Below, piece after piece: positions 22,111-46,700 of a stretch of 64,000 nucleotides of DNA; position 1 is the stretch's first letter, and the number at the start of each line of letters is the position of its first letter. A program made the translations under genes and the position numbers. The DNA comes from Phyllobates terribilis (Eukaryota). Location: assembly GCF_046119375.1 (NCBI RefSeq), contig NW_027362762.1:354516001-354580000 (forward strand), given 5' to 3'. The notes under the pieces were generated by a model that was not told the DNA's origin, made no database searches, and was given only the letters and a program-made list of their open reading frames with translations.

Positions 22111-22294
22111 TTTATAGATTATTGTTATATATATATGTTCATTTTTTCTTCTTTTCTTTTTCTTTTTGATTATTTACATTTATATGCATTGCTTCTATGC
22201 TATATGATTTTAACATGGTATGTGTGTTTACATTTCTGATTAACTCAGCCTTGAACAGGTGCATAGCAGGACATGACATATAAATACCACTTCC

Positions 22295-23136
22295 TTGCTG
22301 TTTTTTTGCTATGCAATGATTAAGAACTCGTATATATATTGTGCAGAAAGAAGGGTGAAAGTCCGCCCAGGCGGGAGGAAATTGGAGTTTCATAACACAT
22401 ATTTGAACTGGAGAGGTATTAGAGGCCTGCAATGGCCACAGGTACTAATGGAGGTAATCAAGGTAGGGAGAGAGGCTAGAGGTCCGGTCATCTTAGTTAT
22501 ACAGGCTGGGGGAAACGACATAGCTTATCACAAGAGCGCATAACGAATGGCAATAATGAAACTAGACCCTGAGCGCTTCAGAGAATTTTTCACAAAACTA
22601 ACTATAGTATGGTCAGAGATTGTGCCGAGAGCGGAATGGCAAGATGCGTGAGACATCACGGCCATCGAATGGACATGGCAGGTAATAAATATTCGGATGG
22701 CAATATTTATAAGAGACAGAGGCTGTGTAGTGATACGACACCGACAACTGGAAGGAGATAAAGCAGGCCTCATACGGCCCGACGGTGTTCACTTAATGGA
22801 TATTGGACTGGAAATATTACTGTCAGGACTCCAGGATGGAGTGGAACAAGCGTTAAGAGTGATGGATGGGGGTCGGAGTCCTGCATATAAGTAAGCAGGA
22901 TCCTCCGTTGCCTGGAAATAGAAAGGACATGTTGGAGAGTTACACTTGTTGGCCAACTTGCCGTTGTGGAGACTGGAGACACAGGGCATGTTGCAACAAG
23001 CTGAATTATTTTAGAAATAAAATGCATTTCTAATGGAATGAGTATAAACAGTTAATAAAGCTGTGAACGATCTTCACCCATCCAGTTGTAAGAGTTACAT
23101 GATTGTATTGTCAATGAAAGGGGGCGTTAGGGGGCT
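22295..23136 (+). pseudogene. SGNH-hydrolase ORF fragment and 3' end, probably from a DIRS/Ngaro-type tyrosine-recombinase retrotransposon
   Basis: ORFs 22295-22543 (WRGIRGLQW...LVIQAGGNDI, SGNH block III GxND) and 22697-22894 (PDGVHL, block V DxxH); followed by AATAAAGCTGTG. Confidence 0.65.
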
Positions 23137-23519
23137 GAGCGTCTGGGTTTGGTTAGGGGTCCCCACAGTCTGCCTAGGCTAGATGCAGTTAAAAATCATT
23201 ATTAGATACACAGGCGGTACAGCTTGCTTCGCAGCTGGGTTTCTACGCTGACTAGCAGACACTGAAGCTTTGGAGCAGACCTCTGAGTAAACAGCTCTTC
23301 AGACTCAACCATCTGTGTTACCCCAAGCCATAGTGTGTGTATTTTCTTACGGTTTAAAGGGGGGGGGGACCCAACCCACCTCTAATTGATGATGGCAACG
23401 TCACGTAAAACAAAGCAAGGGGACTCCAAAAAGAGTCTCCATTTTTTCCAAAAATTTGTGGCACAGACACCACTTAAGTGGCATCAATTGCCCCAGAGTT
23501 GCTTAAAACGGTGGGTTAG

Positions 23520-23930
23520 AATGAGTACCACACACTGGTACTATGCTCAAAATTATTTTCCAGACAAGATGCAGCTAAAAATTATTAGTAATTTGCAAGC
23601 TGGTGGAGCTTAGTATAGATGGCATAATAGAGTGAGTACCGCACTCTGCTACAGGCCCAAAATTATTTTCCAGACAAGATGCAGCTAAAAATTACTAGTA
23701 ATTTGCAAGCTGGTGGAGCTTAGTATAGATGGCATAATAGAATGAGTACCGCACACTGCTATTGGCCCAAAATTAATTTCCAGACAAGATGCAGCTAAAA
23801 ATCACTAGTAATTTGCAAGCTTGTGGAGCTTAGTATAGATGGCATAATAGAATGAGTACCGCACACTGCTACAGGCCCAAAATTATTTTCCAGACAAGAT
23901 GCAGCTAAAAATTATTAGTAATTTGAAAGC
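23520..23930. repeat. About 3.5 copies of a 110-bp repeat downstream of the hAT-A transposase, homologous to the satellite monomer
   Basis: CAGACAAGATGCAGCTAAAAAT recurs at 23561, 23671, 23781, 23891; shares AGATGCAG, TTTGCAA.CTG.TGGAG, AGTATAGATGG with the 109-bp monomer. Confidence 0.9.
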
Positions 23931-23972
23931 TTAAAACGGTTGGTGAGGTGATTTTACGAAATCCTCAAGCTT

Positions 23973-26341
23973 TTACTCTCCCCAGGATGACACAGGGGTA
24001 GAAAAGTCCTTGCGGATCCATGATTTGCTCATCTTTATGAACGTGAGTCTGTCTACATTCTCAGCGGACAGCCGCGTGCGCTTATCTGTCAGCACACCAC
24101 CAGCAGCGCTGAACACACGTTCTGAGAGAATGGTGGCTGCGGGGCATGACAAGATCTCCAAGGCGTAAGTGGCGAGCTCCGGCCATTTATCCAGATTGGA
24201 AGCCCAAAAAGAGCATGGGTCCAGTGACACAGTCATGGCTTCGATGTTTACTTGGAGATACTCCTGTACCATCGTCTCTAGGCGTTGACTATGTGTCAGA
24301 CTTCTTGTCTCCTGTGGCCTTGCAAAGGATGGGCTAAAAAAGCTGTGAAATGATTCCGCAAAATTGCTGTTACCAGCAGATACTGTGTTTCTGTTACGGT
24401 TTGAGTGCTGAACACTCGACAGTCCCACGGTTGGCAAGTTGGAACTGTGAGAATCACTACGTGCACCACTGGTGTTTTGTGGAAAAGCACATGTAAGATT
24501 CTGCAACAGTCTCTGCTGATACTCCTGCATGCGTGAATCCCTTTCTATGGCAGGAATGATTTCGGCAAAATTACTTTTGTACCGGGGATCTAAGAGTGTG
24601 GCAACCCAGTAGTCAGGATTATTTCGAATTCTGACAATTCGAGGGTCATGTTGCAGGTAGTGCAGCAAGAAGGCACTCATGTGTCTTGCGCATCCAGGAG
24701 CACCAAGTCCCTGTTGTGTTGGTGGCGAGGTAACAATCATGCTTCCTTCCTCTGCCCTCTCCCCCCAACCTCGCACAACAGAAATGTGATCAAGGTCTCC
24801 CTCATCTGATGGGTCTTCCATTACTTCGTCCTCCACTTATTCCTGTGCTCCTGCACCTTCCTCACTAGTTTGGCTGCTCCATGCGCCCTGGTAAATCCAT
24901 CTCCCCCACCCTCACATGCCTGCCGCCTTGGTGCTGCCGACCGTCTGGACCTTGCAGATGTTAGCCCTTCCGCATACAACTCCTCCTCCTCTACTTCCTC
25001 CACCTCCACCCCTTCTTGTCGCACCACCTGACTCCGAATTCTGTTAAACATGTGCTCCAGCATGTAAATCACCGGAATAGTCATGCTGATAATGGCATCG
25101 TCAGCACTAAACATCTTCGTCGCCATTTCAAAACTGTGCAGAAGGGTGCATAGGTCCCTGATCTGAGACCACTCCTCCAGCGTGATTTGCCCCACCTCTG
25201 GATCCCGTTGGCTCAGGCTATATGCCAGAACGTATTGCACCAGGGCTTCTTGGTGCTGCCACAGTCGCTGCAACATGTGCAGAGTTGAATTCCACCGGGT
25301 AGGCACATCGCATTTTAGCCGGTGAAGTGGCAGGCCCAACGACTTCGGTAGAGATGTAAGTCGCTGAGCTGCGGGATGCGAACGGCGGAAGTGAGCACAC
25401 AGCGACTGTGCACTCTGCAGAAAGCCATCTAGTCCGGCATAGTGGCCTAAAAATTGCTGGACAACCAGGTTCAACATGTGAGCCGTACAAGGCACGTGTG
25501 TGACATTGCCCCGGTGAAGCGCCGCACCGAGGTTTGCAGCATTGTCGCACACGGCCTTTCCTGGTTTCAGGTCCAGTGGAGACAACCATTCATGAAACTG
25601 GTTCTCCAGAGCTGACCACAACTCCTCAGCTGTGTGACTCACATTTCCCAGACATTTCAAAGTAAAAACCGCCTGATGACGTTGAGCCCTGCTGCCAGCA
25701 TAGTAAGGAGGTGTGCAGGATCCCTTCTGCGCAGTTAGAAAGCGTGTGGCATGACCAGACAGGCTTTGGGTGCAGGTGGAGGACCGAGAGGAGGTTGAGG
25801 AGGCAGAAGCAGTGGAGGAACTTTGAGATAAAGAGGATTGACGCACAACTCGTGGGGACGGCAAGACTTGGACAGCAGCCAGTTGTCCTGCTGTCACCAT
25901 AGTTACCCAGTGCCCAGTCAGCGACATGTAACGCCCCTGTCCATGCCTACTCGTCCAAGTGTCTGTGGTGAAATGCACCCTGTCACACACAGAGTTTCTC
26001 AAAGAAGCGGTGATGTTGTGTGCGACATGCTGGTGGAGCGCAGGCACACCTTTCTTTGAGAAGTAGTGCCGACTGGGCATCTGGTTCTGGGGCACTGCGA
26101 CGGACATAAGGTCTCGAAAATCTTCTGTGTCCACCAGGCAGAAAGGCAGCATTTCTGTAGCCAAGAGCTTGCAGATGGTGAAATTCAACCTCTTAGCTTT
26201 CTCATGCCTAGGAGGAAATGGTCTTTTACTTGTACACATCTGAGGGACCGAGGGCTGGCTATGGTGCTTAGACGGGGTTGAGTAGGGTGTCCCCGGCAAA
26301 CTGACGGTCTGTGAGGAAGATGCAGGCTGACATGTTAGGTT
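23973..26341 (-). pseudogene. hAT-A transposase, catalytic core and C-terminus (3' part, split by hAT-B)
   Basis: ORFs 23973-24836 and 24821-26341: TTDTW, VCDNAA, PCTAH, TRWNS, SERVFS, hATC domain. Confidence 0.92.
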
Positions 26342-26832
26342 TAGTGTTGAGCCACCCCCGTAGTGTTCGAGTTCGGTTCGGTTCGTCGAACACCCGTGTG
26401 TTCGCCGAACTGTTCGTCGAACACCTTCGAACACCGTTAAAACCAATGGCAGGCAAACAAAAACACATAGAAACACATAGAAAACACCTTCAAAGGTGTC
26501 CAAAAGCTGACAAACTGCTCAGAAGACATAACTAACACATGGAAAAGTGACAAGTACATATAGTCATGCGAAAATAAAAGAGGTGGAGGAGTAAAAGGAG
26601 GGGGAGACACAGATATAGGCATGTCATGCCCTTCTAAAATCCAAAAAGTGAGAAGCCGACACGGCCAGTCCGCTCCTGCCCGTGCCACCTCCGTGTCGCC
26701 GGGTTTGTGCCAGAGCCGCGGTGAACCCTAATGGCCAGCCCCCCTCTCCCAATACTGGTGCCTGTCCGCTGGTGGGTCGAGCGAGCCCCCCTGTGGTGGA
26801 GGCAGCTCTAAGCTTTTTAATTTAAATTGTCT

Positions 26833-27108
26833 CTCTAATTTGAATGAATACACTTTAAATCCATTTACAAGGATCTATTTTTAGGGCAAGTCTCATGCCA
26901 GCAGCCGCGTAATTCCAGCTCCAGTAGCGTCCACTAAAGCTGCTGCAGTTAAAAAGCTTTTATAAGGATCGAGCTCGGCTGTCCACCGCAAGGCATCCTA
27001 CTGCCAGTCCCAGCCCCTATGCCTTGGGGTGCCTCCTGATGCTCTTCACTGAGGATCCCATGGTCCCGAAGCATTTCCTTTGAAAAAATTAAGTGTCTAA
27101 ACTACAGG
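26833..27108 (+). pseudogene. Degenerate 18S rRNA fragment captured in hAT-B
   Basis: GGCAAGTCTCATGCCAGCAGCCGCGTAATTCCAGCTCCAGTAGCGTCCACTAAAGCTGCTGCAGTTAAAAAGCT; homologous to 20258-20535 at the same position relative to the element end. Confidence 0.92.
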
Positions 27109-27212
27109 TGGTGTAGCTTGCTTAACAGCCGGGATAATCCGCTGACTAGCAGACACTGCTACTAGGCACAAAGTATTTCCTGGGCTAGATGCAGTTAAAA
27201 ATTTGTAATTAG

Positions 27213-29033
27213 ATACTCTCGTTGGATGCTGAGAAAGCATTCCATAGAGTCTCCTGGCACGCCATATATGATTCTCTTAAAAAGCTTGGGGTAGGGGTCT
27301 AGGGGACCCTTTTATAGCCAAAATCACGGCCCTGTATCACAATACGTCACCTAGGCTGAAGATAAATGGAACTGTAGCACAGTGAGGGCTCGGTTGCTAC
27401 AGAGGTATTGCACCTCACTCAGAGGTGTGATATCTCACTCTCAGGTAAGGATGGAGTGTGGATCAAGACCCGACACCTGCATGCATTACACCACATTGCC
27501 GTGGGGCAGGGCGACCAATATGCCTCTGAGATGGGCACGACAGTCCCTGTCCCTGGCTGGAGTGGGGGGAGGGAACACTGAGGAAGGGGAACCCTGTAGT
27601 GCAGGAGCAGGGAGGAAGCAGTTCCTGGGTGCATTGAGAAGGGAGTATAAAAGGTGGGCACCATCTTAGTTCAGTGCAGAGAAGTCTGAGCAGAAGTGGC
27701 AGGGAGCAGGGGCTCTGCATGAGCTCTGCTCCGGAGGCGGGCCTAGTAACAGAGGCCCAGGCCTGGAAGAGGGAGAAGGAAGGAAGAGGAGCGGAGAAGG
27801 CTCCAGGAACGAGGAATGAAGGGATCCCAGGGGTGCGGACGGTCGTGTCGCCACCGCACGCCCGAATCCACCTGCGTGGAGGGGTCAGGCCAAAGGGGCA
27901 AACCGGTCCCCGAAACTAGTGGAGGCAGGAAACGACCCTCAGCTAGAAACCGGAGGCTGTGACATTTTATGTGGCGCAGCCCCTCGCTACACCCGCTAGG
28001 AAGGCACCACATAGGGTCAGGGAAACTGGCGCCAAGTTTACCAAGAGGAGGCCCGAGGCAGCCGGACAGAAGGGTTGGTAAGAAAGGCCAGACAAAGGAC
28101 ACACAAAGGGGGTCCTGTGAAGCGCTCCAAAGTTATCTGGGAGTTGTCTGAGCCCCTCACCTGGTGAGCACAGTACGACGTGAGCAGCCGTTACCTGCAG
28201 ACGTGGTCTGGATAATAAGAACTGTGAGTAAAGGCCCTGGACTGCATCACTGACTCCGTGTCGTTACTGCTGCTGCCCTGCACCATCACCCCCATCCTCC
28301 GCATACACTGCCCTGAGGCTATACTCCTCCTGTGGGGAGTTATGCTACGCTCTGCTGCACCCACAACACCAGCCTCAGCGGTCTGCCCTGCAGCGGCGGC
28401 TCACTCTGACCGCAATCCACGGGTGGCGTAGTCGGACATTTAAACATCAAAACCACATAAATAGTTCCGCCACTGGTTTGACCACCCTGAGCCACAGAAC
28501 CGGGTCGCCGCCACGAAGACTACAACCACCAGCATCCACCAAAAAGGGTCCGGCTCCGGGTGTCCCAAGGCCCAGGGGGTGCATCAGAAAATTTTCATCA
28601 CCTTTCACAATCACCAATGGGACAAGGCAGGGATGTCCTCTGTCCCCTCTCTTATACATCCTAGTGACGGAGCACCTGCTCTAATCAATTCGCCATAACC
28701 CCAATATTAGGTGGATTGAGGTGGGAGGCACCGAGTACAAGTGCTCTCTCTTTGCTGATGATGTCCTAGTATATATCACTCAATCACATATATCCATCCA
28801 TGCTGTTATGGCTGAAATAGATCACTTTGTTACATGGTCAAATTTTAAAATCAATGCAGCGAAGTCTGAGGCCCTCGATGTCTCCCTCCCCAAATCCATA
28901 TAGGATTCCATCCAGTCCAACTTTCCCTTTGCCTGGCCCTCACAGGGTATCAAATACTTAGGAATTCCTATTCATAGAGACCTCTCCCATCTATGTTATC
29001 TTAATTTTGGGCCCTTTATTCAACAACTCCATA
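27213..29033 (+). pseudogene. L1 RT fragment in hAT-B (27213-27372 plus 28587-29033), split by a solo LTR
   Basis: Collinear with 20735-21335; DAEKAFHRVSW before the insertion and FADDVLVY after it. Confidence 0.88.
27373..28586 (+). mobile_element. Probable solo LTR (Gypsy/ERV-like), 1,214 bp
   Basis: Absent from the homologous site in hAT-A (20890); begins TG(TAGCA) and ends CA; flanked by GAAC/GAAA (imperfect 4-bp TSD); TATAAAA at about 27646; tRNA-Ser PBS-like TGGCGTAGTCGG at 28424-28435. Confidence 0.75.
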
Positions 29034-29108
29034 CAGACCACGGTTGGCAAGTTAGAACTGTAAGATTCACTACGTGAACCACTGGTGTTTTGTGGAAAAG
29101 CACATGTA

Positions 29109-30482
29109 CACTGTGTTCCAAATTATTATGCAAAAAGTGTTTAGGAGTGATAAGGGAAGAATTTGTTTGTTTGTCAGTTAAACTCATTGATGGTGATGTG
29201 TGTCAGGGCTCTTTATATCACTGTAAGCAATTGCAGACACCAGTGCTAATTAGTTTGTCAGGTGTGTCCAATGAAAGGCAAGACTACTTAAGAAGGCTTT
29301 CTCACATTATTCAGCAGCCTACATTTTCTGCCAAAATGGGAAAGAAAAAGGATGTGTCGGCTGCTGAGAAGCAACAAATTGTGGAGTATTTAGGTCAAGG
29401 CATGACTACAATCAACATTGTGCGATGATCAGGATGAAGTGTCTTGGCAATCAAGAAGTATGTAGCTGATTCACAGTACACACGTGTGCGTGCTGATAAG
29501 GGCAAATTGAGGACTCTTTCCTACAGGCAATTACGTCAGGTTGAAAGAGCAGCGGCAAAAAAGACTTGTCATAGCAGCAGACAAGTTTTTGAAGCTGCTT
29601 GTGCCTCCAACGTCCCCCGAACAACAAAATGCAGGGTCCTTCAGAGGTTTGCAGCTGTGCATACGCCATCCTGTCGACCTCCTCTATCCACTTCCCACAA
29701 GCAGAAACGGCTCCAGTGGGCCAAACATTACATGAAGACTGATTTCAAAACTGTTTTGTTGACGGATGAGTGCCGTGCAGCGCTCGATGGTCCAGATGGA
29801 TGGAGTGGAGGATGGCTGGTTGATAGACACCCCACGCAAACACGGCTACAGCGCCAACAAGGAGGAGGTGGAGTAATGTTTTGGGCTGGAATCATGGGGA
29901 GAGAGATTGTCGGCCCCTTTAGGATCCCTGAAGGCGCTAAAGATGAACTCCATAATGTATGTGGATTTTCTCAAACAGCACTTCCTGCCATGGTTCAAGA
30001 AGAAGAACCGTGTATTTCACAGCAAGATCATTTTTCTGCATGATAATGCACCATCTCATGCTGCACATAAAACATCTGCATCTCTGGCTGATATGGGCAT
30101 AAAAGGGGACAAACTTATGGTGTGACCCCCATGCTCCCCTGACCTCTACCCCATTCAGAACCTTTGGAGCATCATTAAAAGGAGTGTCTATGATGGCGGG
30201 AGGCAGTTCACATCTAAGCAACAGCTCTGGGAGGGTATTCTGTCCTCATGCAAAACAATTGAAGCAGAAACCATCCAAAACCTGACAAATTCAATGGACG
30301 AGAGAGTTCAGAAGCTCCTTTCGAACAAGGGTTCCTATGTGAAAATGTAACATCACCTAGAATAAAGTTTTGAGATGAAAACTGTTTGATTTCAGTTTCT
30401 AACAACCTGCTAATGCTTATAATTTCAAAAATGACCATTTTTTTGGTCTTTATTAAAATGAAAAGGTTGATCGAAAAGTTTG
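29109..30482 (+). mobile_element. Dead DD37E (TRT) Tc1-like element inside hAT-B
   Basis: Collinear with 244-1617; disrupted ORF 29336-30350 with the same TGA and E-to-Q lesions and the same right-end truncation. Confidence 0.87.
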
Positions 30483-30807
30483 GGGGATCTAAGAGTGTGG
30501 CAACCCAGTAGTCATGATTACTTCGAATTCTGACAATATGAGGGTCATGCTGCAGGTAGTGCAGCAAGAAGGCACTTATGTGTCTTGCGCATCTCGGAGC
30601 CCCAAAATTATTTTCCGGGCTAGATGCAGCTAAAAATTATTTTTAATTTTAAATCTGGTGGAGCTTATTATAGATGGCCTAATAGGATCAGTGCTGCACA
30701 CTGCTACAAAGCCCAAATTATTTTCCAGTCAAGATACAGATAAACATGATTAGTAATTTGAAAGCTTAAAACGGTTGGTAGGGTGATTTTAAACAATCAT
30801 CAAGCTT

Positions 30808-33800
30808 TTACTCTCCCCAGGATGACACAGGGGTAGAAAAGTCGTTTCGGATCCATGATTTGTTCATCTTTATGAACGTGAGTCTGTCTACATTATCAGT
30901 GGAGAGCCGCGTGCGCTTATCTGTCAGCATACCACCAGCAGCGCTGAACACACGTTCAGACAGAACGCTGGCTGCGGGGCATGACAAGATCTCCAAGGCG
31001 TAAGTGGCTAGCTCCGGCCATTTATCCAGATTGGAAGCCCAAAAAGAGCAAGGGTCCAGTGACACAGTCGTGCCTTCAATGTTTACTTGGAGATACTCCT
31101 GTACCATCGTCTCTAGGCGTTGACTATGTGTCAGACTTCTTGTCTCCTGTGGCCTTGCAAAGGATGGGCTAAAAAAGTGGTGAAATGATTCCGCAAAATT
31201 GATGTTACCACCAGATACTGTGGTTCTGTTACGGTTTGAGTGCTGAACACTTGACGGTCCCACGGTTGGCAAGTTCTAACTGTGAGATTCACTACGTGCA
31301 CCACTGGTATTTTGTGGAAAAGCACATGTAAGATTCTGCAACAGTCTCTGCTGATACTCCTGCATGCGTGAATCCCTTTCTATGGCAGGAATAATTTCTA
31401 CAAATTTACTTTTGTACCGGGGATCTAACAGTGCGGCAAACCAGTAGTCAGGATTATTTCTAATTCTCACAATTCGAGGGTCATGTTGCAGGTAGTGCAG
31501 CAAGAAGGCACTCATGTGTGTTGCGCATCCAGGAGCACCAAGTCCCTGTTGTGTTGGTGGCGAGGTAACAATCATGCTTCCTTCCTCTGTCCTCTCCCCC
31601 CAACCTCGCACAACAGAAATGTGATCAAGGTCTCCCTCATCTGATGAGTCTTCCATCAGTTCGTCCTCCACTTCTTCCTGGGCTCCTGCACCTTCCTCAC
31701 TAGTTTGGCTGCTACCATGCGCCCTGGTAAAACCATCTCCCGCACCCTCACATGCCTGCCGCCTTGGTGCTGCCGACCGTCTGGACCTTGCAGATGTTAG
31801 CCCTTCCGCATACAACTCCTGCTCCTCTACTTCATCCACCTCCTCTTGTGCCACCACCTGACTCCGAATTCTGTTTAACATGTGCTCCAGCATGTAAATC
31901 ACCGGAATAGTCATGCTGATAATGGCATCGTCAGCACTAAACATCTTCGTCGCCATTTCAAAACTGTGCAGAAGGGTGCATAGGTCCCTGATCTGAGACC
32001 ACTCCTCCAGCGTGATTTGCCCCACCTCTGAATCTCGTTGGCCCAGGCTATACGTGAGAACGTATTGCACCAGGGCTTGTCGGTGCTGCCACAGTCGCTG
32101 CAACATGTGCAGAGTTGAATTCCACCGGGTAGGCACATCGCATTTTAGCCGGTGAAGTGGCAGGCCCAACGACTTCTGTAGAGATGTAAGTCGCTGAGCT
32201 GCGGGATGCGAACGGCGGAAGTGAGCACACAGCGACCGTGCCCTCTGCAGAAGGCCATCTAGTCTGGGATAGTGGGCTAAAAATTGCTGGACAACCAGGT
32301 TCAACACGTGAGCCATACAAGGCACGTGTGTGACATTGCCCCGGCGAAGGGCCGCACCCAGGTCTGCAGCATTGTCGCACACGGCCTTCCCTGGTTTCAG
32401 GTCCAGTGGAGACAACCATTCATGAAATTGGTTCTCCAGAGCTGACCACAACTCCTCAGCTGTGTGACTCACATTTCCCAGACATTTCAATGTAAAAACC
32501 GCCTGATGACGTTGAGCCCTACTGCCAGCATAGTAAGGAGGTGTGCAGGATCCCTTCTGCGCAGTTAGAAAGCTTGTGGCATGACCAGACAGGCTTTGGG
32601 TGCAGGTGGAAGACCGAGAGGAGTTTGAGGAGGCAGAAGCAGTGGAGGAACTTTGACATAAAGAGGATTGACGCACAACTCGTGGGGACGGCAAGACTTG
32701 GACAGCAGCCCCTTGTCCTGCTGTCACCATAGTTACCCAGTGCCCAGTCAGCGACATGTAACGCCCCTGTCCATGCCTACTCGTCCAAGTGTCTGTGGTG
32801 AAATGCACCCTGTCACACACAGAGTTTCTCAAAGAAGCGGTGATGTTGTGTGCGACATGCTGGTGGAGCGCAGGCACACCTTTCTTTGAGAAGTAGTGCC
32901 GACTGGGCATCTGGTACTGGGGCACTGCGACGGACATAAGGTCTCGAAAATCCTCTGTGTCCACCAGGCGGAAAGGCAGCATTTCTGTAGCCAAGAGCTT
33001 GCAGATGGTGAAATTCAACCTCTTAGCTTTCTCATGGCTAGGAGGAAATGGTCTTTTACTTGTCCACATCTGAGGGACCGAGGGCTGGCTATTGTGCTTA
33101 GACGGGGTTGATAAGGGTGTCCCCGGCAAACTGCCGGTCTGTGAGGAAGATGCAGGCGGACATGTTAGGTTGCCTTGATCCAAAGGTGGTGCTATCGATG
33201 TCGGACAGCGCTCAACACCAGCTACTGTTACCACCTCCAAAGAAAATGATGACCTGCCAATCACGCTGGCTGTTGCGGGTAAAGAGGTGGCAGGTCTGCG
33301 CCCCAAAACAGGTGTGACTGCTGTCCCCCCAGTCACAGAGGATGAAGAGGCCGCGGATGCACAAGATATGGCAGACGGTGGTTGGCCCGGCCGGCTAGGC
33401 CGCATTGTAGCACACTGAGCTTCCCACTGCAACTTATGCTTCATGTCCATGTGCCGGTTCATGCATGAAGTACTCAAACTATGTATTTTTTGGCCTCTAC
33501 TTAGCTTTTGCTGACAAATGTTACAGATAACACGAGTTGGGTCATCTTTATCGATCTGAAAAAATGCCCAGGCTATGCAAGGCTTAGCACCCATGCGACC
33601 TGAAGAGCCACCACGACTTGTGGTGAGAGGCAGAGTTGTGTTTGAGGATGCAGTTGTTGACGTGCTTCCAGTACTACGTCTCTGTCCAGGAAGGCGCAAC
33701 CTGACCTCGTCGTCACTAGCATCTTCCTCCACCTCCTCTGCTGACCTCATCTCTTGGCTGACTGTGGGTTGACAGTAAGTGGGATCTCCAACCTCATCAT

Positions 33801-34507
33801 CATCACCCTGTGTGTTATCACACCCGTCGTCCTCAGAGCCAACCTGTTCCTGCCCTGACAAAAAACTAAAGTTGTCGCTCCAATCAGGTATGAGTCTTAT
33901 CATCGTCTTCCTCATTGTCTCCACCAACAGGAGTTACAGTTTGGGAATTAGGGTCTACATTATGGTCAGAACCTTCTGCGTCTGGTCCTGGATCCGACTC
34001 ATAAAGATTCTGGGCATCAGTGCAGATCATTTCCTCGTCTGGATTCACAGAAGCGCTGGAGTCGACCTCTGATTCCCAGGCTATAGTATGAGTAAACAGC
34101 TCTGCAGACTCAACCATCTGTTCTACCTCATACTCAGACGGGCAGCTGGAGATTTGGGAGCTGTGAGGAGGCAAGTGCGATTTGGGTGACACCTTTGAGG
34201 ACTGGAGTATTTGTGATGTTGAAGTTGATGTGGAGGAGAGCCCACTTAAAGGAGCACTTGATATCCGTTGAAGCACCTGCTGTTTTTGTGCCTCATCTGG
34301 AATTTGTAGCGATTGGCGTGGCCGTAAGAAAGGGATCTTATCACATTGTCCGCTAAAAGAAGTAGACATTTTAGTTTGGCTGGAAGATGGTCTTTCTTCT
34401 GCAGATGTTACTGTTGCTTTAACACCTACCCCATGGACACAACCTTTTTTCCCCTTCCCAACACGCCTATTCCCCTTTCCACCAGCAGCAGGCCTTTTTC
34501 CACTCAT
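30808..34507 (-). pseudogene. hAT-B transposase, nearly intact (one 2-bp deletion near 33890, one TAG at 31273-31275)
   Basis: ORFs 33884-34507, 31276-33927 (883 aa), 30808-31272; BED finger, TTDTW, VCDNAA, PCMAH, TRWNS, SERVFS, hATC all present; ATG in ACCACCAAAATG context. Confidence 0.95.
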
Positions 34508-34624
34508 TTTGGTGGTTAACTAATTCACAACTCTGGAGTTGTTTGCACAAAAAAACAATGGATGGTAACCGAGCAGAGCTGAGTGGCCAAACTGTGGTAT
34601 TAGGCCAAAACTATTGGCTGGGTT

Positions 34625-37600
34625 AGATGCAGAAAAAAATATATTCAGTTTGCAACCTGATGGAGGTCAGTATAGATGGACTAATAGAGAAAGTCCGACA
34701 CACTGCTACAAGGCCAAATATTTTTTCAGAGGTAGATGCAGAAAAAAATTATATTCAGTTTGCAACCTGATGGAGGTCTGTATAGATGGATTAATAGAAC
34801 AAGACCCACACACAGCTAGAAGCCCAATATTTTTTCAGAGGTAGATGCAGAAAAACATATATTCAGTTTGCAACCTGATGGAGGTCAGTATAGATGGACT
34901 AATACAACAAGTCCCACACACAGCTAGAAGCCCAAATATTTTTTCAGAGGTACTGTAGATGCAGATAAAAATTATTTTTAATTTGCAACCTGATGGAGGT
35001 CAGTATAGATGGACTAATACAACAAGTCCCACACACAGCTAGAAGCCCAAATATTTTTTCAGAGGTACTGTAGATGCAGATACAAATTATTTTTAATTTG
35101 CAACCTGATGGAGGTCAGTATAGATGGACTAATACAACAAGTCCCACACACAGCTAGAAGCCCAAATATTTTTTCAGAGGTACTGTAGATGCAGATAAAA
35201 ATTATTTTTAATTTGCAACCTGATGGAGGTCAGTATAGATGGACTAATAGAGAAAGTCCGACACACTGCTAGAAGGCCAAATATTTTTTCAGAGCTAGAT
35301 GCAGAAAAAAATTATATTCAGTTTGCAACCTGATGGAGGTCAGTATAGATGGATTAATAGAACAAGACCCACACACAGCTAGAAGCCCAATATTTTTTCA
35401 GAGGTAGATGCAGAAAAAAATATATTCAGTTTGCAACCTGATGGAGGTCAGTATAGATGGACTAATACAACAAGTCCCACACACAGCTAGGAGCCCAAAT
35501 ATTTTTTCAGAGGTACTGTAGATGCAGATAAAAATTATTTTTAATTTGCAACCTGATGGAGGTCAGTATAGATGGACTAATACAACAAGTCCCACACACA
35601 GCTAGAAGCCCAAATATTTTTTCAGAGGTACTGTAGATGCAGATACAAATTATTTTTAATTTGCAACCTGATGGAGGTCAGTATAGATGGACTAATACAA
35701 CAAGTCCCACACACAGCTAGAAGCCCAAATATTTTTTCAGAGGTAGATGTAGAAAAAAATATATTCAGTTTGCAACCTGATGGAGGTCAGTATAGATGGA
35801 CTAATACAACAAGTCCCACACACAGCTAGAAGCCCAAATATTTTTTCAGAGGTACTGTAGATGCAGATACAAATTATTTTTAATTTGCAACCTGATGGAG
35901 GTCAGTATAGATGGACTAATACAACAAGTCCCACACACAGCTAGAAGCCCAAATATTTTTTCAGAGGTACTGTAGATGCAGATAAAAATTATTTTTAATT
36001 TGCAACCTGATGGAGGTCAGTATAGATGGACTAATACAACAAGTCCCACACACAGCTAGAAGCCCAAATATTTTTTCAGAGGTACTGTAGATGCAGATAC
36101 AAATTATTTTTAATTTGCAACCTGATGGAGGTCAGTATAGATGGACTAATACAACAAGTCCCACACACAGCTAGAAGCCCAAATATTTTTTCAGAGGTAG
36201 ATGCAGAAAAAAATATATTCAGTTTGCAACCTGATGGAGGTCAGTATAGATGGACTAATACAACAAGTCCCACACACAGCTAGAAGCCCAAATATTTTTT
36301 CAGAGGTACTGTAGATGCAGATACAAATTATTTTTAATTTGCAACCTGATGGAGGTCAGTATAGATGGACTAATACAACAAGTCCCACACACAGCTAGAA
36401 GCCCAAATATTTTTTCAGAGGTACTGTAGATGCAGATAAAAATTATTTTTAATTTGCAACCTGATGGAGGTCAGTATAGATGGACTAATAGAGAAAGTCC
36501 GACACACTGCTAGAAGGCCAAATATTTTTTCAGAGCTAGATGCAGAAAAAAATTATATTCAGTTTGCAACCTGATGGAGGTCAGTATAGATGGATTCATA
36601 GAACAAGACCCACACACAGCTAGAAGCCCAATATTTTTTCAGAGGTAGATGCAGAAAAAAATATATTCAGTTTTCAACCTGATGGAGGTCAGTATAGATG
36701 GACTAATACAACAAGTCCCACACACAGCTAGAAGCCCAAATATTTTTTCAGAGGTACTGTAGATGCAGATAAAAATTATTTTTAATTTGCAACCTGATGG
36801 AGGTCAGTATAGATGGACTAATACAACAAGTCCCACACACAGCTAGAAGCCCAAATATTTTTTCAGAGGTACTGTAGATGCAGATACAAATTATTTTTAA
36901 TTTGCAACCTGATGGAGGTCAGTATAGATGGACTAATACAACAAGTCCCACACACAGCTAGAAGCCCAAATATTTTTTCAGAGGTAGATGCAGAAAAAAA
37001 TATATTCAGTTTGCAACCTGATGGAGGTCAGTATAGATGGACTAATACAACAAGTCCCACACACAGCTAGAAGCCCAAATATTTTTTCAGAGGTACTGTA
37101 GATGCAGATAAAAATTATTTTTCATTTGCAACCTGATGGAGGTCAGTATAGATGGACTAATACAACAAGTCCCACACACAGCTAGAAGCCCAAATATTTT
37201 TTTCAGAGGTACTGTAGATGCAGATACAAATTATTTTTAATTTGCAACCTGATGGAGGTCAGTATAGATGGACTAATAGAGAAAGTCCGACACACTGCTA
37301 GAAGGCCAAATATTTTTTCAGAGCTAGATGCAGAAAAAAATTATATTCAGTGTGCAACCTGATGGAGGTCAGTATAGATGGATTAATAGAACAAGTCCCA
37401 CACACAGCTAGAAGCCCAAATATTTTTTCAGAGGTACTGTAGATGCAGATACAAATTATTTTTAATTTGCAACCTGATGGAGGTCAGTATAGATGGACTA
37501 ATACAACAAGTCCCACACACAGCTAGAAGCCCAAATATTTTTTCAGAGGTAGATGCAGAAAAAAATATATTCAGTTTGCAACCTGATGGAGGTCAGTATA

Positions 37601-40600
37601 GATGGACTAATACAACAAGTCCCACACACAGCTAGAAGCCCAAATATTTTTTCAGAGGTACTGTAGATGCAGATACAAATTATTTTTAATTTGCAACCTG
37701 ATGGAGGTCAGTATAGATGGACTAATACAACAAGTCCCACACACAGCTAGAAGCCCAAATATTTTTTCAGAGGTACTGTAGATGCAGATAAAAATTATTT
37801 TTAATTTGCAACCTGATGGAGGTCAGTATAGATGGACTAATAGAGAAAGTCCGACACACTGCTAGAAGGCCAAATATTTTTTCAGAGCTAGATGCAGAAA
37901 AAAATTATATTCAGTTTGCAACCTGATGGAGGTCAGTATAGATGGATTAATAGAACAAGACCCACACACAGCTAGAAGCCCAATATTTTTTCAGAGGTAG
38001 ATGCAGAAAAAAATATATTCAGTTTGCAACCTGATGGAGGTCAGTATAGATGGACTAATACAACAAGTCCCACACACAGCTAGAAGCCCAAATATTTTTT
38101 CAGAGGTACTGTAGATGCAGATAAAAATTATTTTTAATTTGCAACCTGATGGAGGTCAGTATAGATGGACTAATACAACAAGTCCCACACACAGCTAGAA
38201 GCCCAAATATTTTTTCAGAGGTACTGTAGATGCAGATACAAATTATTTTTAATTTGCAACCTGATGGAGGTCAGTATAGATGGACTAATACAACAAGTCC
38301 CACACACAGCTAGAAGCCCAAATATTTTTTCAGAGGTAGATGCAGAAAAAAATATATTCAGTTTGCAACCTGATGGAGGTCAGTATAGATGGACTAATAC
38401 AACAAGTCCCACACACAGCTAGAAGCCCAAATATTTTTTCAGAGGTACTGTAGATGCAGATAAAAATTATTTTTAATTTGCAACCTGATGGAGGTCAGTA
38501 TAGATGGACTAATACAACAAGTCCCACACACAGCTAGAAGCCCAAATATTTTTTCAGAGGTACTGTAGATGCAGATAAAAATTATTTTTAATTTGCAACC
38601 TGATGGAGGTCAGTATAGATGGACTAATACAACAAGTCCCACACACAGCTAGAAGCCCAAATATTTTTTCAGAGGTACTGTAGATGCAGATACAAATTAT
38701 TTTTAATTTGCAACCTGATGGAGGTCAGTATAGATGGACTAATACAACAAGTCCCACACACAGCTAGAAGCCCAAATATTTTTTCAGAGGTAGATGCAGA
38801 AAAAAATATATTCAGTTTGCAACCTGATGGAGGTCAGTATAGATGGACTAATACAACAAGTCCCACACACAGCTAGAAGCCCAAATATTTTTTCAGAGGT
38901 ACTGTAGATGCAGATACAAATTATTTTTAATTTGCAACCTGATGGAGGTCAGTATAGATGGACTAATACAACAAGTCCCACACACAGCTAGAAGCCCAAA
39001 TATTTTTTCAGAGGTACTGTAGATGCAGATAAAAATTATTTTTAATTTGCAACCTGATGGAGGTCAGTATAGATGGACTAATAGAGCAAGTCCGACACAC
39101 TGCTAGAAGGCCAAATATTTTTTCAGAGCTAGATGCAGAAAAAAATTATATTCAGTTTGCAACCTGATGGAGGTCAGTATAGATGGATTCATAGAACAAG
39201 ACCCACACACAGCTAGAAGCCCAATATTTTTTCAGAGGTAGATGCAGAAAAAAATATATTCAGTTTGCAACCTGATGGAGGTCAGTATAGATGGACTAAT
39301 ACAACAAGTCCCACACACAGCTAGAAGCCCAAATATTTTTTCAGAGGTACTGTAGATGCAGATAAAAATTATTTTTAATTTGCAACCTGATGGAGGTCAG
39401 TATAGATGGACTAATACAACAAGTCCCACACACAGCTAGAAGCCCAAATATTTTTTCAGAGGTACTGTAGATGCAGATACAAATTATTTTTAATTTGCAA
39501 CCTGATGGAGGTCAGTATAGATGGACTAATACAACAAGTCCCACACACAGCTAGAAGCCCAAATATTTTTTCAGAGGTAGATGCAGAAAAAAATATATTC
39601 AGTTTGCAACCTGATGGAGGTCAGTATAGATGGACTAATACAACAAGTCCCACACACAGCTAGAAGCCCAAATATTTTTTCAGAGGTACTGTAGATGCAG
39701 ATAAAAATTATTTTTAATTTGCAACCTGATGGAGGTCAGTATAGATGGACTAATACAACAAGTCCCACACACAGCTAGAAGCCCAAATATTTTTTTCAGA
39801 GGTACTGTAGATGCAGATACAAATTATTTTTAATTTGCAACCTGATGGAGGTCAGTATAGATGGACTAATAGAGAAAGTCCGACACACTGCTAGAAGGCC
39901 AAATATTTTTTCAGAGCTAGATGCAGAAAAAAATTATATTCAGTTTGCAACCTGATGGAGGTCAGTATAGATGGATTAATAGAACAAGTCCCACACACAG
40001 CTAGAAGCCCAAATATTTTTTCAGAGGTACTGTAGATGCAGATACAAATTATTTTTAATTTGCAACCTGATGGAGGTCAGTATAGATGGACTAATACAAC
40101 AAGTCCCACACACAGCTAGAAGCCCAAATATTTTTTCAGAGGTAGATGCAGAAAAAAATATATTCAGTTTGCAACCTGATGGAGGTCAGTATAGATGGAC
40201 TAATAGAGAAAGTCCGACACACTGCTAGAAGGCCAAATATTTTTTCAGAGCTAGATGCAGAAAAAAATTATATTCAGTTTGCAACCTGATGGAGGTCAGT
40301 ATAGATGGATTAATAGAACAAGACCCACACACAGCTAGAAGCCCAATATTTTTTCAGAGGTACATGCAGAAAAAAATATATTCAGTTTGCAACCTGATGG
40401 AGGTCAGTATAGATGGACTAATACAACAAGTCCCACACACAGCTAGAAGCCCAAATATTTTTTCAGAGGTACTGTAGATGCAGATAAAAATTATTTTTAA
40501 TTTGCAACCTGATGGAGGTCAGTATAGATGGACTAATACAACAAGTCCCACACACAGCTAGAAGCCCAAATATTTTTTCAGAGGTACTGTAGATGCAGAT

Positions 40601-41892
40601 ACAAATTATTTTTAATTTGCAACCTGATGGAGGTCAGTATAGATGGACTAATACAACAAGTCCCACACACAGCTAGAAGCCCAAATATTTTTTCAGAGGT
40701 AGATGCAGAAAAAAATATATTCAGTTTGCAACCTGATGGAGGTCAGTATAGATGGACTAATACAACAAGTCCCACACACAGCTAGAAGCCCAAATATTTT
40801 TTCAGAGGTACTGTAGATGCAGATAAAAATTATTTTTAATTTGCAACCTGATGGAGGTCAGTATAGATGGACTAATACAACAAGTCCCACACACAGCTAG
40901 AAGCCCAAATATTTTTTTCAGAGGTACTGTAGATGCAGATACAAATTATTTTTAATTTGCAACCTGATGGAGGTCAGTATAGATGGACTAATAGAGAAAG
41001 TCCGACACACTGCTAGAAGGCCAAATATTTTTTCAGAGCTAGATGCAGAAAAAAATTATATTCAGTTTGCAACCTGATGGAGGTCAGAATAGATGGATTA
41101 ATAGAACAAGTCCCACACACAGCTAGAAGCCCAAATATTTTTTCAGAGGTACTGTAGATGCAGATACAAATTATTTTTAATTTGCAACCTGATGGAGGTC
41201 AGTATAGATGGACTAATACAACAAGTCCCACACACAGCTAGAAGCCCAAATATTTTTTCAGAGGTAGATGCAGAAAAAAATATATTCAGTTTGCAACCTG
41301 ATGGAGGTCAGTATAGATGGACTAATACAACAAGTCCCACACACAGCTAGAAGCCCAAATATTTTTTCAGAGGTACTGTAGATGCAGATAAAAATTATTT
41401 TTAATTTGCAACCTGATGGAGGTCAGTATAGATGGACTAATACAACAAGTCCCACACACAGCTAGAAGCCCAAATATTTTTTCAGAGGTACTGTAGATGC
41501 AGATACAAATTATTTTTAATTTGCAACCTGATGGAGGTCAGTATAGATGGACTAATAGAGAAAGTCCGACACACTGCTAGAAGGCCAAATATTTTTTCAG
41601 AGCTAGATGCAGAAAAAAATTATATTCAGTTTGCAACCTGATGGAGGTCAGTATAGATGGATTAATAGAACAAGACCCACACACAGCTAGAAGCCCAAAT
41701 ATTTTTTCAGAGGTAGATGCAGAAAAAAATATATTCAGTTTGCAACCTCATGGAGGTCAGTATAGATGGACTAATACAACAAGTCCCACACACAGCTAGA
41801 AGCCCAAATATTTTTTCAGAGGTACTGTAGATGCAGATAAAAATTAGTTTTAATTTGCAACCTGATGGAGGTCAGTATAGATGGACTAATAT
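34625..41892. repeat. Tandem satellite of 109-115 bp monomers (about 65 copies, 7.3 kb) with higher-order structure
   Basis: Same monomer as 5760-8245 plus an ACTGT-insertion variant; the marker variant GAGAAAGTCCGACAC recurs at spacings 563, 1241, 788, 564, 1241, 788, 334, 788, 564. Confidence 0.97.
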
Positions 41893-42810
41893 AATGATGC
41901 TATGCCCAAAAGATTTTACTTCACTAGGTGCAGTAAAAAAATTGGTATTCTATACACAGGTGGTATATCTTGCAGCACAGATAGGCTACTCCACTGACTA
42001 ACACACTCTGCAATAGGCCAAAAAGGATTAGCTTTGCTAGATTCAGCCAAATGCTGTGAAAAAAACTTGCACAGCACTGGCACAGACCTGCCTAGCAAAA
42101 ACTGATAGGAACTGATGTAACCTAGTCCTGAAAAGGACTCCAATTACAATTAGTCTTTACTCCCACAACCTATCTATTTAAGAGCACAGACCTCCATGAT
42201 AAAAGTCGTAGGAAATGCTGTAACCTAGTCCTTAAAAGGACTGCAATCACAACTATTCCCTACTCCCAAGCTATCGGTATATTTGTGCGAAAATTGGCTT
42301 GAAAATAACAAGGTATAGCGCACACAGCAACAGCGGTGCCGTCTAACATGCAGCTGCAGCAGTGAGAAAATGGTGGCGACGGGGAAAATGGCTTGGTCTT
42401 ATAGGGCAAGGACATGTGACATACACTGCCAATGACACATGCCCTTGCTTGTGTGAAAAAAAGCACTTCGCTCCGTGTGTGCGCTGCTGATAGGCTGACA
42501 GATTGCACCTCCCCACTGCAAATGCGGGAAAGAGAAAAAAAAATGGAGATCTTCATTGTTCCTGCAGAGATCCATCCCCTGCCCCTCCCCCCACCCCGCT
42601 GTACACTCAAACTGCGTATTAACATTAATTTTCATCATTACTGAGAAAAAATCCAGTTATAATTTTGGTGCACGAACAGTTATCGAACATAACCTCGAAC
42701 AGCCGAATTTTTATCAAATTGTTCGTGTTCGCCGAACGGCTCGAACACCGCACAAAACAGCTCGAATTTGAGATTGGCGAACAGTTCGAGTAGAACAACG
42801 CTCATCTCTA

Positions 42811-44155
42811 GTTAGGTTGCCTTGATCCAAAGGTGGTGCTCTCGATGTCGGAGAGCGCTCAACACCAGCTGGTGTTTCCACCTCCAAATAAAATGATGAC
42901 CTGCCAATCAAGCTGGCTGTTGCGGGTAAAGAGGTGGCAGGTCTGCGTCCCAAAACAGGTGTGACTGCTGTCCCCCAGTCACAGAGGATGAAGAGGCCGT
43001 GGATGCACAAGATGGGGCAGACGGTGGTTGGCCCGGCCCGCTAGGCCGCATTGTAGCACAGTGAGCTTCCCACTGCAACTTATGCTTCATATACATGTGA
43101 CGGTTCATGCATGAAGTACTCAAACTATGGGTTTTTTGGCCTCTTCTTAGCTTTTGGTGACAAATGTTACAGATAACACAATTTGGGTCATCCTTATCGA
43201 TATGAAAAAATGCCCAGGCTATGGAAGGCTTAGCACCCATGCGACCTTAAGAGCCACCACGACTTGTGGTCAGAGGCAGAGTTGTGTTTGAGGATACAGT
43301 TGTTGACGTGCTTCCAGTACTGTGTCTCTGTCCAGGAAGGCACAACCTGACTTCGTCGTCACTAGCATACTCCTCCACCTCCTCTGCTGACCTCATCGAC
43401 TGGCTGACTGTGGGTTGACAGTAAGTGGGTTCTGCAACTTCTTCATCATCACCCTGTGTGTTCTCACACCCATCGTCCTCAGAGCCAACCTCTTCCTGCC
43501 CTGACAAAAAACTCAAGTTGTCGCTCCAATCAGGTATTTGAGTCTCATCATCGTCTTCCTCATTGTCTCCACCAACAGGAGTTACAGTATGGGAACGAGG
43601 GTCTACATTATGGTCAGAACCTTCTGCATCTGGTCCTGGATCCGACTCATAAAGATTCTGGGCATCAGTGCAGATCATTTCCTCGTCTGGATTCACAGAA
43701 GCTCTGGAGCCGACCTCTGATACCCAGGCTATAGTATGAGTAAACAGCTCTGCAGACTCAACCATCTGTTCTACCCCATACTCAGATGGGCAGCTGGAGA
43801 CTTGGGAGCTGTGAGGAAGCAAGTGCGATTGGGGTGACACCTCTGAGGACTGGAGTATTTGTGATGTTGAAGTTGAGGTGGAGGAGAGCCCACTTAAAGG
43901 AGCACTTGATATCCGTTGAAGCACCTGCTGTTTTTGTGCCTCATCTGAAATTTGTAGTGATTGGCTTGGCCGTAAGAAAGGGATCGTATCACATTGTCCG
44001 CTAAAAGAAGTAGACTTCTTAGTTTGGCTGGAAGATGGTCTTTCTTCTGTAGATGTTACTGTTGCTTTAACACCTACCCCACGGACACAACCTTTTTTTC
44101 CCTTCCCAACACGCCTATTCCCCTTTCCACCAGCAGCAGGCCTTTTTCCATTAAT
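42811..44155 (-). pseudogene. hAT-A transposase N-terminal part (acidic region and BED finger); start codon mutated ATG to ATT
   Basis: ORFs 43247-43924, 42908-43240, 42714-43010; collinear with 33165-34507. Confidence 0.9.
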
Positions 44156-46700
44156 TTTGGTGGTTAACTAATTGACAACTCTGGAGTTGTTTGCACAGAA
44201 AACGATGGATGGCAACCGAGCAGAGCTGAGTGGCCAAACTGTGGTATTAGCCCAAAAGGATTGGCTGCGTTAGATGCAGTAAAACAATTTTATTACATAC
44301 ACAGGTGGTGGAGCTTAGTTTAGATGGACTAATAGAATGAGTCCCACACACTGCTACAAGCCCAAAACTATTTTCCGAGCTAGATGCAGATAAAAATTAT
44401 TTGTAATTTGCAAGCTGGTGGAGCTTAGTATAGATGGCCTAATAGAATGATGCTATGCCCAAAAGGTTTTACTTGGCTAGGTGCAGTAAAAAAAAATTTA
44501 TTCTATACACAGGTGGTGTAGCTTGCAACACAGATACGCTACTCCACTGACTAACACACACTGCAAGAGGCCAAAAAGGATTTGCTTAGCTAGATTTAGC
44601 CAAATGCTGTGAAAAATACTTGCACAGCACTGGCACAGACCTGCCTGGCAAAAAGTCCTAGGAAATGCTGTAACCTAGTCCTCAAAAGGACTGCAATTAC
44701 AACTAGTCCCTACTCCCAAGCTGTCTATTTAAGAGCACAGACCTGCCTGCTAAAAGTCGCAGGAAATGCTGTAACCTAGTCCTCAAAAGGACTTCAATTA
44801 TAAGTAGACCCTACTCCCAACCTATCTATTTAAGAGCACAGACCTGCCTTCTAAAAGTCGTGGGAAATGCTGTAACCTAGTCCTCAAAAGGACTGCAATC
44901 ACAACTATTTCCTACTCCCAAGCTATCTGTATATTTCTGAGAAAATTGGCTTGAAATTAACACTGAAAGTATAGCGCACACAGCAACAGCGGTGCCGTCT
45001 AACACGCAGCTGCAGCGGTGAGAAAATGGTGGCGACGGGGAAAATGGCTGGGTCTTATAGGGCAAGGACATGTGACATACATAGCCAATGACACATGCCC
45101 TTGCATGTGTGGAAAAAAAGCAGTTCACTCCATGTGTGCGCTTCTGATAGGCTGACAGATTGCACCTCCCCACTGTAAATGCGGGAAAGAGAAAATAAAA
45201 TGGAGATCTTCATTATTTATGCAGAGATCCATCCCCTGCCCTTCCCCCTGCCCCGCTGTACACTCAAACTGCGTATTAACATTGATTATCAGCATTACTG
45301 TGAAAAAATCCAGTTATGATTTTGGTGCACGAACAGTTATCGAACATAACCTCGAACAGCCGGATTTTTTTCAAATCGTTCGTGTTCGCCGAACGGCTCG
45401 AACACAGCTCAAAACAGCTCGAATTTGAGATTGGCGAACAGTTCGAGTCGAACACCGCTCATCTCTAATCATTACTTTAAGAAATGAAGGTCAGTCAGTC
45501 CGAAAAATTGGGAAAACTTTGAAAGTGTCCCCAAGTGGAGTTGCAAAAACCATCAAGCGCTACAAAGAAACTGGCTCACATGTGGACCGCCCCAGGAAAG
45601 GAAGACCAAGAGTCACCTCTGCTTCTGAGGATAAGTTTATCCGAGTCACCAGCCTCAGAAATCACAGGTTAACAGCAGCTCAGATTAGAGACCAGGTCAA
45701 TGCCACACAGAGTTCTAGCAGCAGACACATCTCTCCAACAACTGTTAAGAGGAGACTTTGTGCTGCAGGCCTTCATGGTAAAATAGCTGCTAGGAAACCA
45801 CTGCTAAGGACAGGCAACAAGCAGAAGAGACTTGTTTGGGCTAAAGAACACAAGGAATGGACATTAGACCAGTGGAAATCTGTGCTTTGGTCTGATGAGT
45901 CCAAATTTGAGATCTTTGGTTCCAACCAACGTGTCTTTGTGTGACGCAGAAAACGTGAACGGATGGACTCTACATGCCTGGTTCCCACCGTGAAGCATGG
46001 AGAAGGAGGTGTGCTGGTGTGGGGGGGCTTTGCTGGTGACACTGTTGCGGATTTATTCAAAATTGAAGGCATACTGAACCAGCATGGCTACCACAGCATC
46101 TTGCAGCGGCATGCTATTCCATCAGGTTTGCGTTTAGTAGGACCATCATTTATTTTTCAACAGGACAATGACCCCAAACACTCCTCCAGGCTGTGTAAGT
46201 GCTATTTGACCAAGAAGGAGAGTGATGGGGTGCTACGCCAGATGACCTGGCCTCCACAGTCACCAGACCTGAACCCAATCGAAATGGTTTGGGGTGAGCT
46301 GGACCGCAGAGTGAAGGCAAAAGGGCCAACAAGTGCTAAGCATCTCTCGGAACTCCTTCAAGATTGTTGGAAGACCATTTCTGGCGACTACCTCTTGAAG
46401 CTCATCAAGAGTAGAGATGAGCGGTGTTCGACTAGAACTGTTCGCCAATCTCAAATTCGAGCTGTTTTGGGCGGTGTTGTTCGACGAACCCGAACGATTT
46501 GCAAAAAATTCGGCTGTTCGAGGTTATGTTCGATAACTGTTCGTGCACCAAAAGCGTGTTCTGCATGTCTGGCGCTATTTAGAGCACCAATCATGCAGGG
46601 ATTGTCTGCCACTCACTGTAATGCCACAGCCATGGTGGTTGTGGCATTACAGTGATTGCCCAAATCGATGGGAACAGTGCCAACAGTGAAACATGAAAAG

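Follow-up and report, generated by a model that had tools for sequence, protein, structure and literature searches.

In a 64-kb window of Phyllobates terribilis (the whole stretch of 64,000 nucleotides analysed here: assembly GCF_046119375.1, contig NW_027362762.1, forward-strand positions 354,516,001 to 354,580,000, numbered from 1 below) we find three copies of one hAT transposon family, called hAT-A, hAT-B and copy 1. Within hAT-B a 110-bp repeat forms a tandem array (34625..41892) that adjoins the 5' side of the transposase gene. We propose, with a probability of about 0.8, that this is a variable-number array which grew inside the hAT (BED-finger) transposon from an old repeat native to the element, was later reshuffled and is carried as a neutral passenger. 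All sequence comparisons between copies were made within this window, which contains no N.

An element-native repeat expanded at one site

The hAT-B array consists of 65 monomers, the last of which is partial and 25 of which are distinct (36.6% GC; ratio of observed to expected CpG 0.04). At the homologous site copy 1 carries 23 monomers (5760..8245; 21 distinct), whereas hAT-A (44272..44578) has one full unit (44272-44380), a 68-nt part of another (44382-44449) and a weak, decayed third (44480-44578; E 0.15). The copy number at a single site is therefore about 1.6, 23 and 65. The original prediction (about 2, 23 and 65 units) is borne out by TRF (64.6 copies at 34624-41891 and 22.6 at 5759-8245), by the profile search described below and by splitting at an anchor, which yields 65 monomers in hAT-B (109-116 bp) and 23 in copy 1, with an overall range of 108-116 bp and a partial final unit in both arrays. 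Monomers of hAT-B differ by 4.8% substitutions on average (12.8% at most), i.e. they are approximately 95% alike, and combine head, middle and tail types in mosaic fashion. Overall, the array belongs to the structure of the element and varies in copy number, as in transposon-internal tandem arrays of the Tetris and miDNA4 kind.

To trace the monomer we built a profile from the array monomers and searched the window with it. Outside the arrays seven strong matches are obtained (at 23567, 23677, 23787, 30622, 1757, 44272 and 44382; E 5e-13 or better), next to 11 weak ones (E 0.03 to 9). All seven have the same orientation and lie inside elements: two at the upstream site of hAT-A and five downstream of the transposase genes of hAT-A (3.8 units at 23517..23931; E 4e-19 to 1e-17), hAT-B (older units at 30622..30766; E 2.5e-17) and copy 1. 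The array monomers are 18-28% away from these units (18-26% for the upstream units of hAT-A). In a monomer tree the 44 distinct array monomers fall on one side of a 99/97 branch and the seven other units on the opposite side. Furthermore, at four of the ten columns that separate the arrays from the upstream hAT-A units, all five downstream units show the hAT-A state. Because of these columns and this branch the array form appears to be the derived version of a 110-bp repeat that, judged from the sequence, is an old and native part of this hAT family. This supports the earlier claim that the array grew inside the element, as the repeat is native and its units flank the gene in all three copies.

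A different origin, in which an independent satellite was inserted into the element, is highly improbable. Capture of a pre-existing repeat has been proposed for miDNA4 in the part of that account available (PMC12628747), and these hAT elements do pick up foreign fragments. Nonetheless, no strong non-array match in the window lies outside an element, and the array grades into a decayed unit and a tail like those at the same site in hAT-A. The shared site, tail and decayed units rule out a recent insertion of a foreign satellite, so that a capture would have to be very old. Rfam gave no matches in 33000-46500, and among metagenome contigs we obtained 33 pattern matches without a transposase relative and none to a 25-base core of the monomer. 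In the literature searched, which covers few subscription or older papers and neither supplements nor repeat databases, we found no description of this element or monomer, although supplements of frog repeat papers may list the monomer.

Layered duplications in the hAT-B array

The best ungapped self-match of the hAT-B array is found at a lag of 2,593 bp, or 23 monomers. A first copy of this block (34982..37574) is followed directly by a second, which together with a 38-bp overlap covers 37575..40205; over 2,631 bp, 34982-37612 and 37575-40205 differ by seven substitutions, and indels are absent. Of these differences five are private to the first copy (35491, 35750, 36674, 37123 and 37352) and one to the second (39087), while the remaining one is a variant that is common in the array. 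The match stops abruptly at both sides (beyond 37612/40205), which leaves two copies only. The lag score (2449) was equalled by none of 100 shuffles of monomer order (maximum 774) and by one of 100 first-order Markov strings (maximum 2492). A coarser periodicity test, in which the monomers were grouped into ten classes, gave no significant result (the longest run, of 14, was matched in length by 308 of 2000 Markov strings).

Further self-matches are present at lags of 1,122, 1,241 and 1,352 bp (10, 11 and 12 monomers), the first of which corresponds to a tandem duplication at 39046..41327 (four substitutions between 39046-40205 and 40168-41327). Boundaries of the block matches fall within monomers. 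Greedy removal of tandem blocks of 23, 10, 4 and 7 monomers shrinks the array from 65 to 21 monomers. Together, the lags and this reduction reveal layered duplication in the hAT-B array, in which the 2,593-bp block seems to be the youngest large event. The copy 1 array has its own, older duplications of nine monomers (988 bp) and three monomers (330 bp).

Given that the block occurs exactly twice, it might be argued that two alleles or paralogous arrays were joined in tandem during assembly. The difference of 0.27% between the copies fits the allelic range, and all 24 public sequencing runs found consist of contigs, so that no spanning read stands behind the duplication. However, the two copies differ by substitutions alone, and homopolymer indels are absent even though each monomer contains runs of A and T. 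Moreover, block duplications of other sizes occur in the same array, copy 1 contains more diverged ones, and there is no N in the window. We therefore consider an artefact unlikely and, insofar as the assembly can be trusted, the array very probably real.

The finer patterns in the original prediction largely hold. Marker-bearing monomers in hAT-B are numbers 1, 6, 17, 24, 29, 40, 47, 50, 57 and 62, in agreement with the predicted spacing of 5, 11, 7, 5, 11, 7, 3, 7 and 5 monomers. As an exact-match series, the corresponding distances (563/1241/788/564/1241/788/334/788/564 bp) fail at one site: the 13-mer marker is exact at nine of ten sites and has C for A at 39084, and the series holds if one mismatch is allowed. 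The variant GGATTCATAG indeed recurs 2,593 bp apart, with exactly two occurrences in the window (36592 and 39185). A run of seven T does so as well (37193 and 39786), but it is not private to the 23-mer: it is seen a third time in hAT-B, 1,122 bp further on (40908), and once in copy 1 (8162).

Whether the block deserves the name of higher-order repeat (HOR) depends on the definition used. The 23-mer is seen twice and shorter patterns several times, which agrees with local HORs as defined for maize satellites (at least three monomers, at least two times; PMC13011684). According to the sections of that paper available, small, irregular local HORs of low frequency are widespread in maize and are attributed to out-of-register break repair and short-range tandem duplications. 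The irregular multi-monomer pattern is shared with hAT-B, although in maize it is found in large centromere or knob arrays and here in a 7-kb array within a single transposon. Primate alpha-satellite HORs are described in the available part of PMC8122249 as amplified, homogenised blocks of monomers of about 70% identity. As in hAT-B, a block is closer to the next block than neighbouring monomers are to each other, but the alpha blocks are amplified, against two block copies of monomers of about 95% likeness here. As the block is present only twice, it is a local two-copy HOR and not an amplified one. Of the predicted HOR formation, the emergence of multi-monomer periodicity by duplication inside the element stands, whereas the term HOR was overstated.

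History, mechanism and possible functions of the array

Copy 1 (1..9161, minus strand; its other end lies beyond the window) is a sister of hAT-B with 98.5% identity over 5,761 bp. Substitutions between the two amount to 1.1%, 1.5% and 1.9% over three segments, against 3.9-5.5% between either of them and hAT-A. Both arrays are polymorphic for the identical two bases at 14 columns and share a common 5-bp insertion, and in the tree monomers of the two arrays are interspersed (8-9 label changes). Their genes have no lesion in common: the hAT-B gene (30808..34507, minus strand) contains a 2-bp deletion and a stop (frameshift near 33891, stop near 31278) and the copy 1 gene three 1-bp deletions. 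Shared monomer variants without a shared gene lesion suggest that the array of the parent rode in a coding-competent element; the parent of hAT-B and copy 1 probably had an intact gene together with a multi-unit array.

No monomer is identical between the two arrays, and three frequent variants are confined to hAT-B (19, 10 and 7 of 64 monomers, against 0 of 22 in copy 1). Singleton substitutions are also scarcer in hAT-B (8 in 7,204 bp, or 0.11%) than in copy 1 (13 in 2,420 bp, or 0.54%). Set against a flank divergence of 1.1-1.9%, the 0.11% points to a hAT-B array that is much younger than the split, and by this measure it was apparently homogenised several times more recently than hAT-B and copy 1 separated. 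Growth at the present site and growth in a donor copy both fit the sequence. The series 2, 23 and 65, which had been put forward as a snapshot of growth, consequently does not represent successive points in time: hAT-B and copy 1 are sister copies whose arrays were separately reshuffled, and hAT-A is a relative at 3.9-5.5% divergence.

These observations can be arranged in three steps. Short runs of the repeat flank the transposase gene at both ends in each of the three copies, and would represent the starting point. In the lineage of copy 1 and hAT-B a derived upstream unit would then have become a multi-unit array while the element was still coding, after which transposition would have taken the array to new sites. 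Finally, each copy shows a reshuffled pattern that is most likely due to out-of-register recombination or repair. Candidate processes are unequal sister exchange and template slippage during break or gap repair, by which blocks would be duplicated with breakpoints inside monomers. Junction hairpins as drivers of slippage were considered and rejected as unsupported (z = -1.58; 14 of 200 shuffles fold equally well).

Additional evidence comes from the public contigs. Six of the 24 runs, holding 9-10% of the words, are recorded as RNA; four others were compared with the hAT-A site at 80% likeness. In 118 contigs of run X1 and one of X11 the array junction of the hAT-B/copy 1 type is seen as a loose end. 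In three of the four runs the 112-bp unit beside the junction shows a tandem go-back joint (five contigs in X1 with a side of 35 letters, one in X12 with 25 and one in X11 with 21), which is absent in X9. These joints support the presence of expandable units in other members of the family. They lie at the decayed third unit (44453-44564), so that a unit other than that of the hAT-B array may have been multiplied in these members. In X1 the highest summed contig depth falls on the monomer site (7.6 and 6.3 million, against 0.4-2.8 million elsewhere), and X12 peaks there as well; such depth is no measure of copy number and was not used as evidence.

Several points weigh against the proposed history. 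It is based on three copies from one window, and both the array length and the 23-mer depend on the assembly alone. The block reduction is greedy and its history not unique, and from the pattern alone unequal exchange, slippage and conversion between copies are indistinguishable. Conversion between hAT-B and copy 1, which are 29 kb apart, may explain part of the shared variants. The other six of the ten polarity columns are mixed, without a clean pattern. Two of the three 112-bp joints are weak, their short side having fewer than 30 letters (likeness 80%), and run X1 possibly derives from the very sample that was assembled.

With regard to function, a neutral passenger without a present role is the most likely status of the array. 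The original prediction that it might tune or silence the transposase is unsupported: all three genes are broken and the array has a CpG ratio of 0.04. The position of the array is nevertheless suggestive, as about 117 bp separate it from the start codon and a promoter-like stretch (42290..42610, minus strand; 50.5% GC; CpG ratio 0.49) lies about 500 bp past its far end. This stretch contains a TATA-like (42397-42406) and a CCAAT-like motif (42429), from which we presume it to be a putative promoter. The array might thereby lengthen the leader and add possible poly(A) signals, a longer array giving less transposase. ATTAAA occurs 36 times on the sense strand of the hAT-B array and four times, together with three AATAAA, in copy 1, and no GTRAG splice donor is present between the promoter-like stretch and the array. 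(An intron-like joint was not seen in the four contig runs, none of which is recorded as RNA, so that this is uninformative on splicing.) On the other hand, ATTAAA is frequent in AT-rich DNA, and the short hAT-A site also contains two AATAAA. CpG ratios of 0.04 in hAT-B and 0 in copy 1 leave little to methylate, the genes are broken, and the parent of both copies evidently transposed with its array in place. Regulation by the array is therefore quite unlikely.

Just as doubtful is an extended version, in which a coding-competent hAT subfamily spread with an expandable 5' array whose length feeds back on mobility, for example through premature polyadenylation at ATTAAA. That a coding parent carried the array is likely; the feedback half is unsupported. 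If it were true, the longest arrays would inactivate the element that carries them and be set free as new satellites, and each copy would amount to a separate, dated trial of how arrays grow and HORs form. Control of transposase output by array length would amount to a self-limiting mechanism for a DNA transposon.

Monomers might also serve as extra transposase-binding sites that aid mobility, as proposed for the internal repeats of Tetris and Galileo; such a scenario is suggested for TIR-220 in the available part of PMC4079207. In each of the three copies units occur both upstream and downstream of the gene, which would agree with this. Yet both arrays lack the motif GTTCG/CGAAC, of which every one of the seven element ends analysed has 8-11 occurrences in 200 bp. 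The subterminal stretch 42611..42810 of hAT-B, with nine of them, is a likely transposase-binding region. In addition, about 0.9 kb separates the array from the nearest element end, and the units have drifted 18-28% apart, which makes a role in binding very unlikely. We thus retain the neutral passenger as our preferred interpretation.

Carrier elements, precedents and significance

Self-comparison and analysis of the ends show that hAT-B is nested within hAT-A, which in turn lies within a Tc1 copy. The original prediction had overlooked this nesting of hAT-B, as well as the repeat units downstream of the transposase genes. As a composite element of 16,469 bp (26342..42810, minus strand), hAT-B has imperfect 11-bp terminal inverted repeats (TIRs) and a perfect 8-bp target-site duplication (TSD; GTTAGGTT), and interrupts the transposase gene of hAT-A. 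The latter (19749..45467, minus strand) measures about 9.2 kb without hAT-B and is flanked by ATCAATAC/ATCATTAC (7 of 8 positions). Public contigs of runs X1 and X9 run on into uninterrupted Tc1 sequence at 45468, which agrees with insertion of hAT-A into Tc1.

The assignment to the hAT superfamily follows from 8-bp TSDs (8/8 in hAT-B, 7/8 in hAT-A and 8/8 in a fourth element), from imperfect 11-bp TIRs at seven element ends, and from the domains of the transposase (zf-BED, PF02892, E 9.5e-10; hAT dimerisation, PF05699, E 4.3e-16). Full-length relatives of the transposase have 1135-1144 aa at 42-45% identity. Its named relatives are short pieces in Ranitomeya imitator proteins (73-75%), in keeping with a frog origin of this repeat-rich DNA of vertebrate type. 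With the hAT-A gene split by hAT-B and the other two broken, no copy has the intact frame of an autonomous element.

The surroundings are rich in further insertions. Copies of the Tc1 family (19283-19749, 45468-46411 and 56248-57869) took up hAT-A and the fourth element, and three nested insertions are found within 30 kb. The fourth element (46412-50650) has the same terminal repeats in opposite orientation, lies inside a Tc1 piece and has no long open reading frame; it holds a 200-bp repeat (3.6 copies) and long internal inverted repeats (47095-48424 against 50438-49113, 94%). Downstream of the gene hAT-B (27215-30605) and copy 1 (1-1740) have captured cargo in common, consisting of long interspersed nuclear element (LINE) reverse-transcriptase, Tc1 and short hAT pieces. 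LINE fragments are also present in hAT-A (20658-21339, 93-95%), so that their capture would be older than the split of hAT-A from the other two. Within hAT-B a GC-rich stretch of 1.2 kb (27372-28586) has no match elsewhere in the window.

The same leader contains a second repeat of 101 bp, unrelated to the array, whose number also varies: 2.9 copies in hAT-A (44633..44928) and about 1.8 in copy 1 (8431-8619) and hAT-B (42080-42275). Elsewhere in the window we observe a 31-bp minisatellite (51048-52131; 35 copies, 314-bp period) without a link to the hAT copies, broken reverse-transcriptase-like frames that by eye resemble a Penelope-type retroelement (58900-61900), and a MITE-like (miniature inverted-repeat transposable element) self-inverted stretch of 490 bp (11001-11493; 67% identity).

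Similar arrays have been described in other DNA transposons, as far as the parts of these reports available to us go. In Tetris/TIR-220 of Drosophila virilis internal 220-bp repeats are amplified to arrays of up to 66 copies, with duplication of single units attributed to unequal crossing-over (PMC4079207). There, as in hAT-B, repeats already present in a DNA transposon amplify inside it. However, Tetris is described as a non-autonomous foldback element with its repeats within the TIRs, whereas here a hAT with a transposase gene has the array between putative promoter and gene, and multi-monomer blocks are duplicated. Internal tandem repeats are also reported for miDNA4 and Xstir of Xenopus (PMC12628747, PMC9659126) and internal arrays for FEDoR of Rana temporaria (PMC12054243). 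These frog DNA transposons likewise vary in internal repeat number, and are proposed to spread repeats and seed satellites. They are described as non-coding (MITE-like; Tc1/mariner, T2 or unassigned) and, where a size is given, of 0.3-3.5 kb, in contrast to the present hAT, which measures 9-16 kb and apparently descends from a parent with an intact gene.

Transposon-derived repeats are reported outside their carriers as well, again from the parts of the sources available. Parts of transposons gave rise to subtelomeric arrays in X. tropicalis (PMC10794172), and the satellite ENSAT1 of Arabidopsis originates from the 5' region of the autonomous DNA transposon Atenspm (PMC9659126, PMC6947457). 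ENSAT1 is of plant En/Spm origin and exists as free arrays, while the present array is known only inside the elements of our window.

Array growth inside DNA transposons is hence already known in frogs and flies, and no new mechanism is involved. The 1723 element of Xenopus laevis is a high-copy, Ac-like element of 6-10 kb with an 8-bp TSD, whose length varies through internal tandem repeats. It may be the closest precedent, but as a lead only: its unit length differs from our 110-bp monomer, and the element was not located in the literature searched. From most published cases the present one differs by a hAT carrier with an apparently coding parent, and by a fine record of nested duplications.

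The value of the locus lies in this record. It is a clear example of how satellites and HORs form at their earliest stage, and the sister copies and their flanks supply an internal relative clock. The family has many members (96,599 contigs of X1 match a 2-kb stretch, of which about an eighth is Tc1), so that the rates and sizes of block duplication would be measurable over many matched loci, something that is hard to achieve in centromeric arrays.

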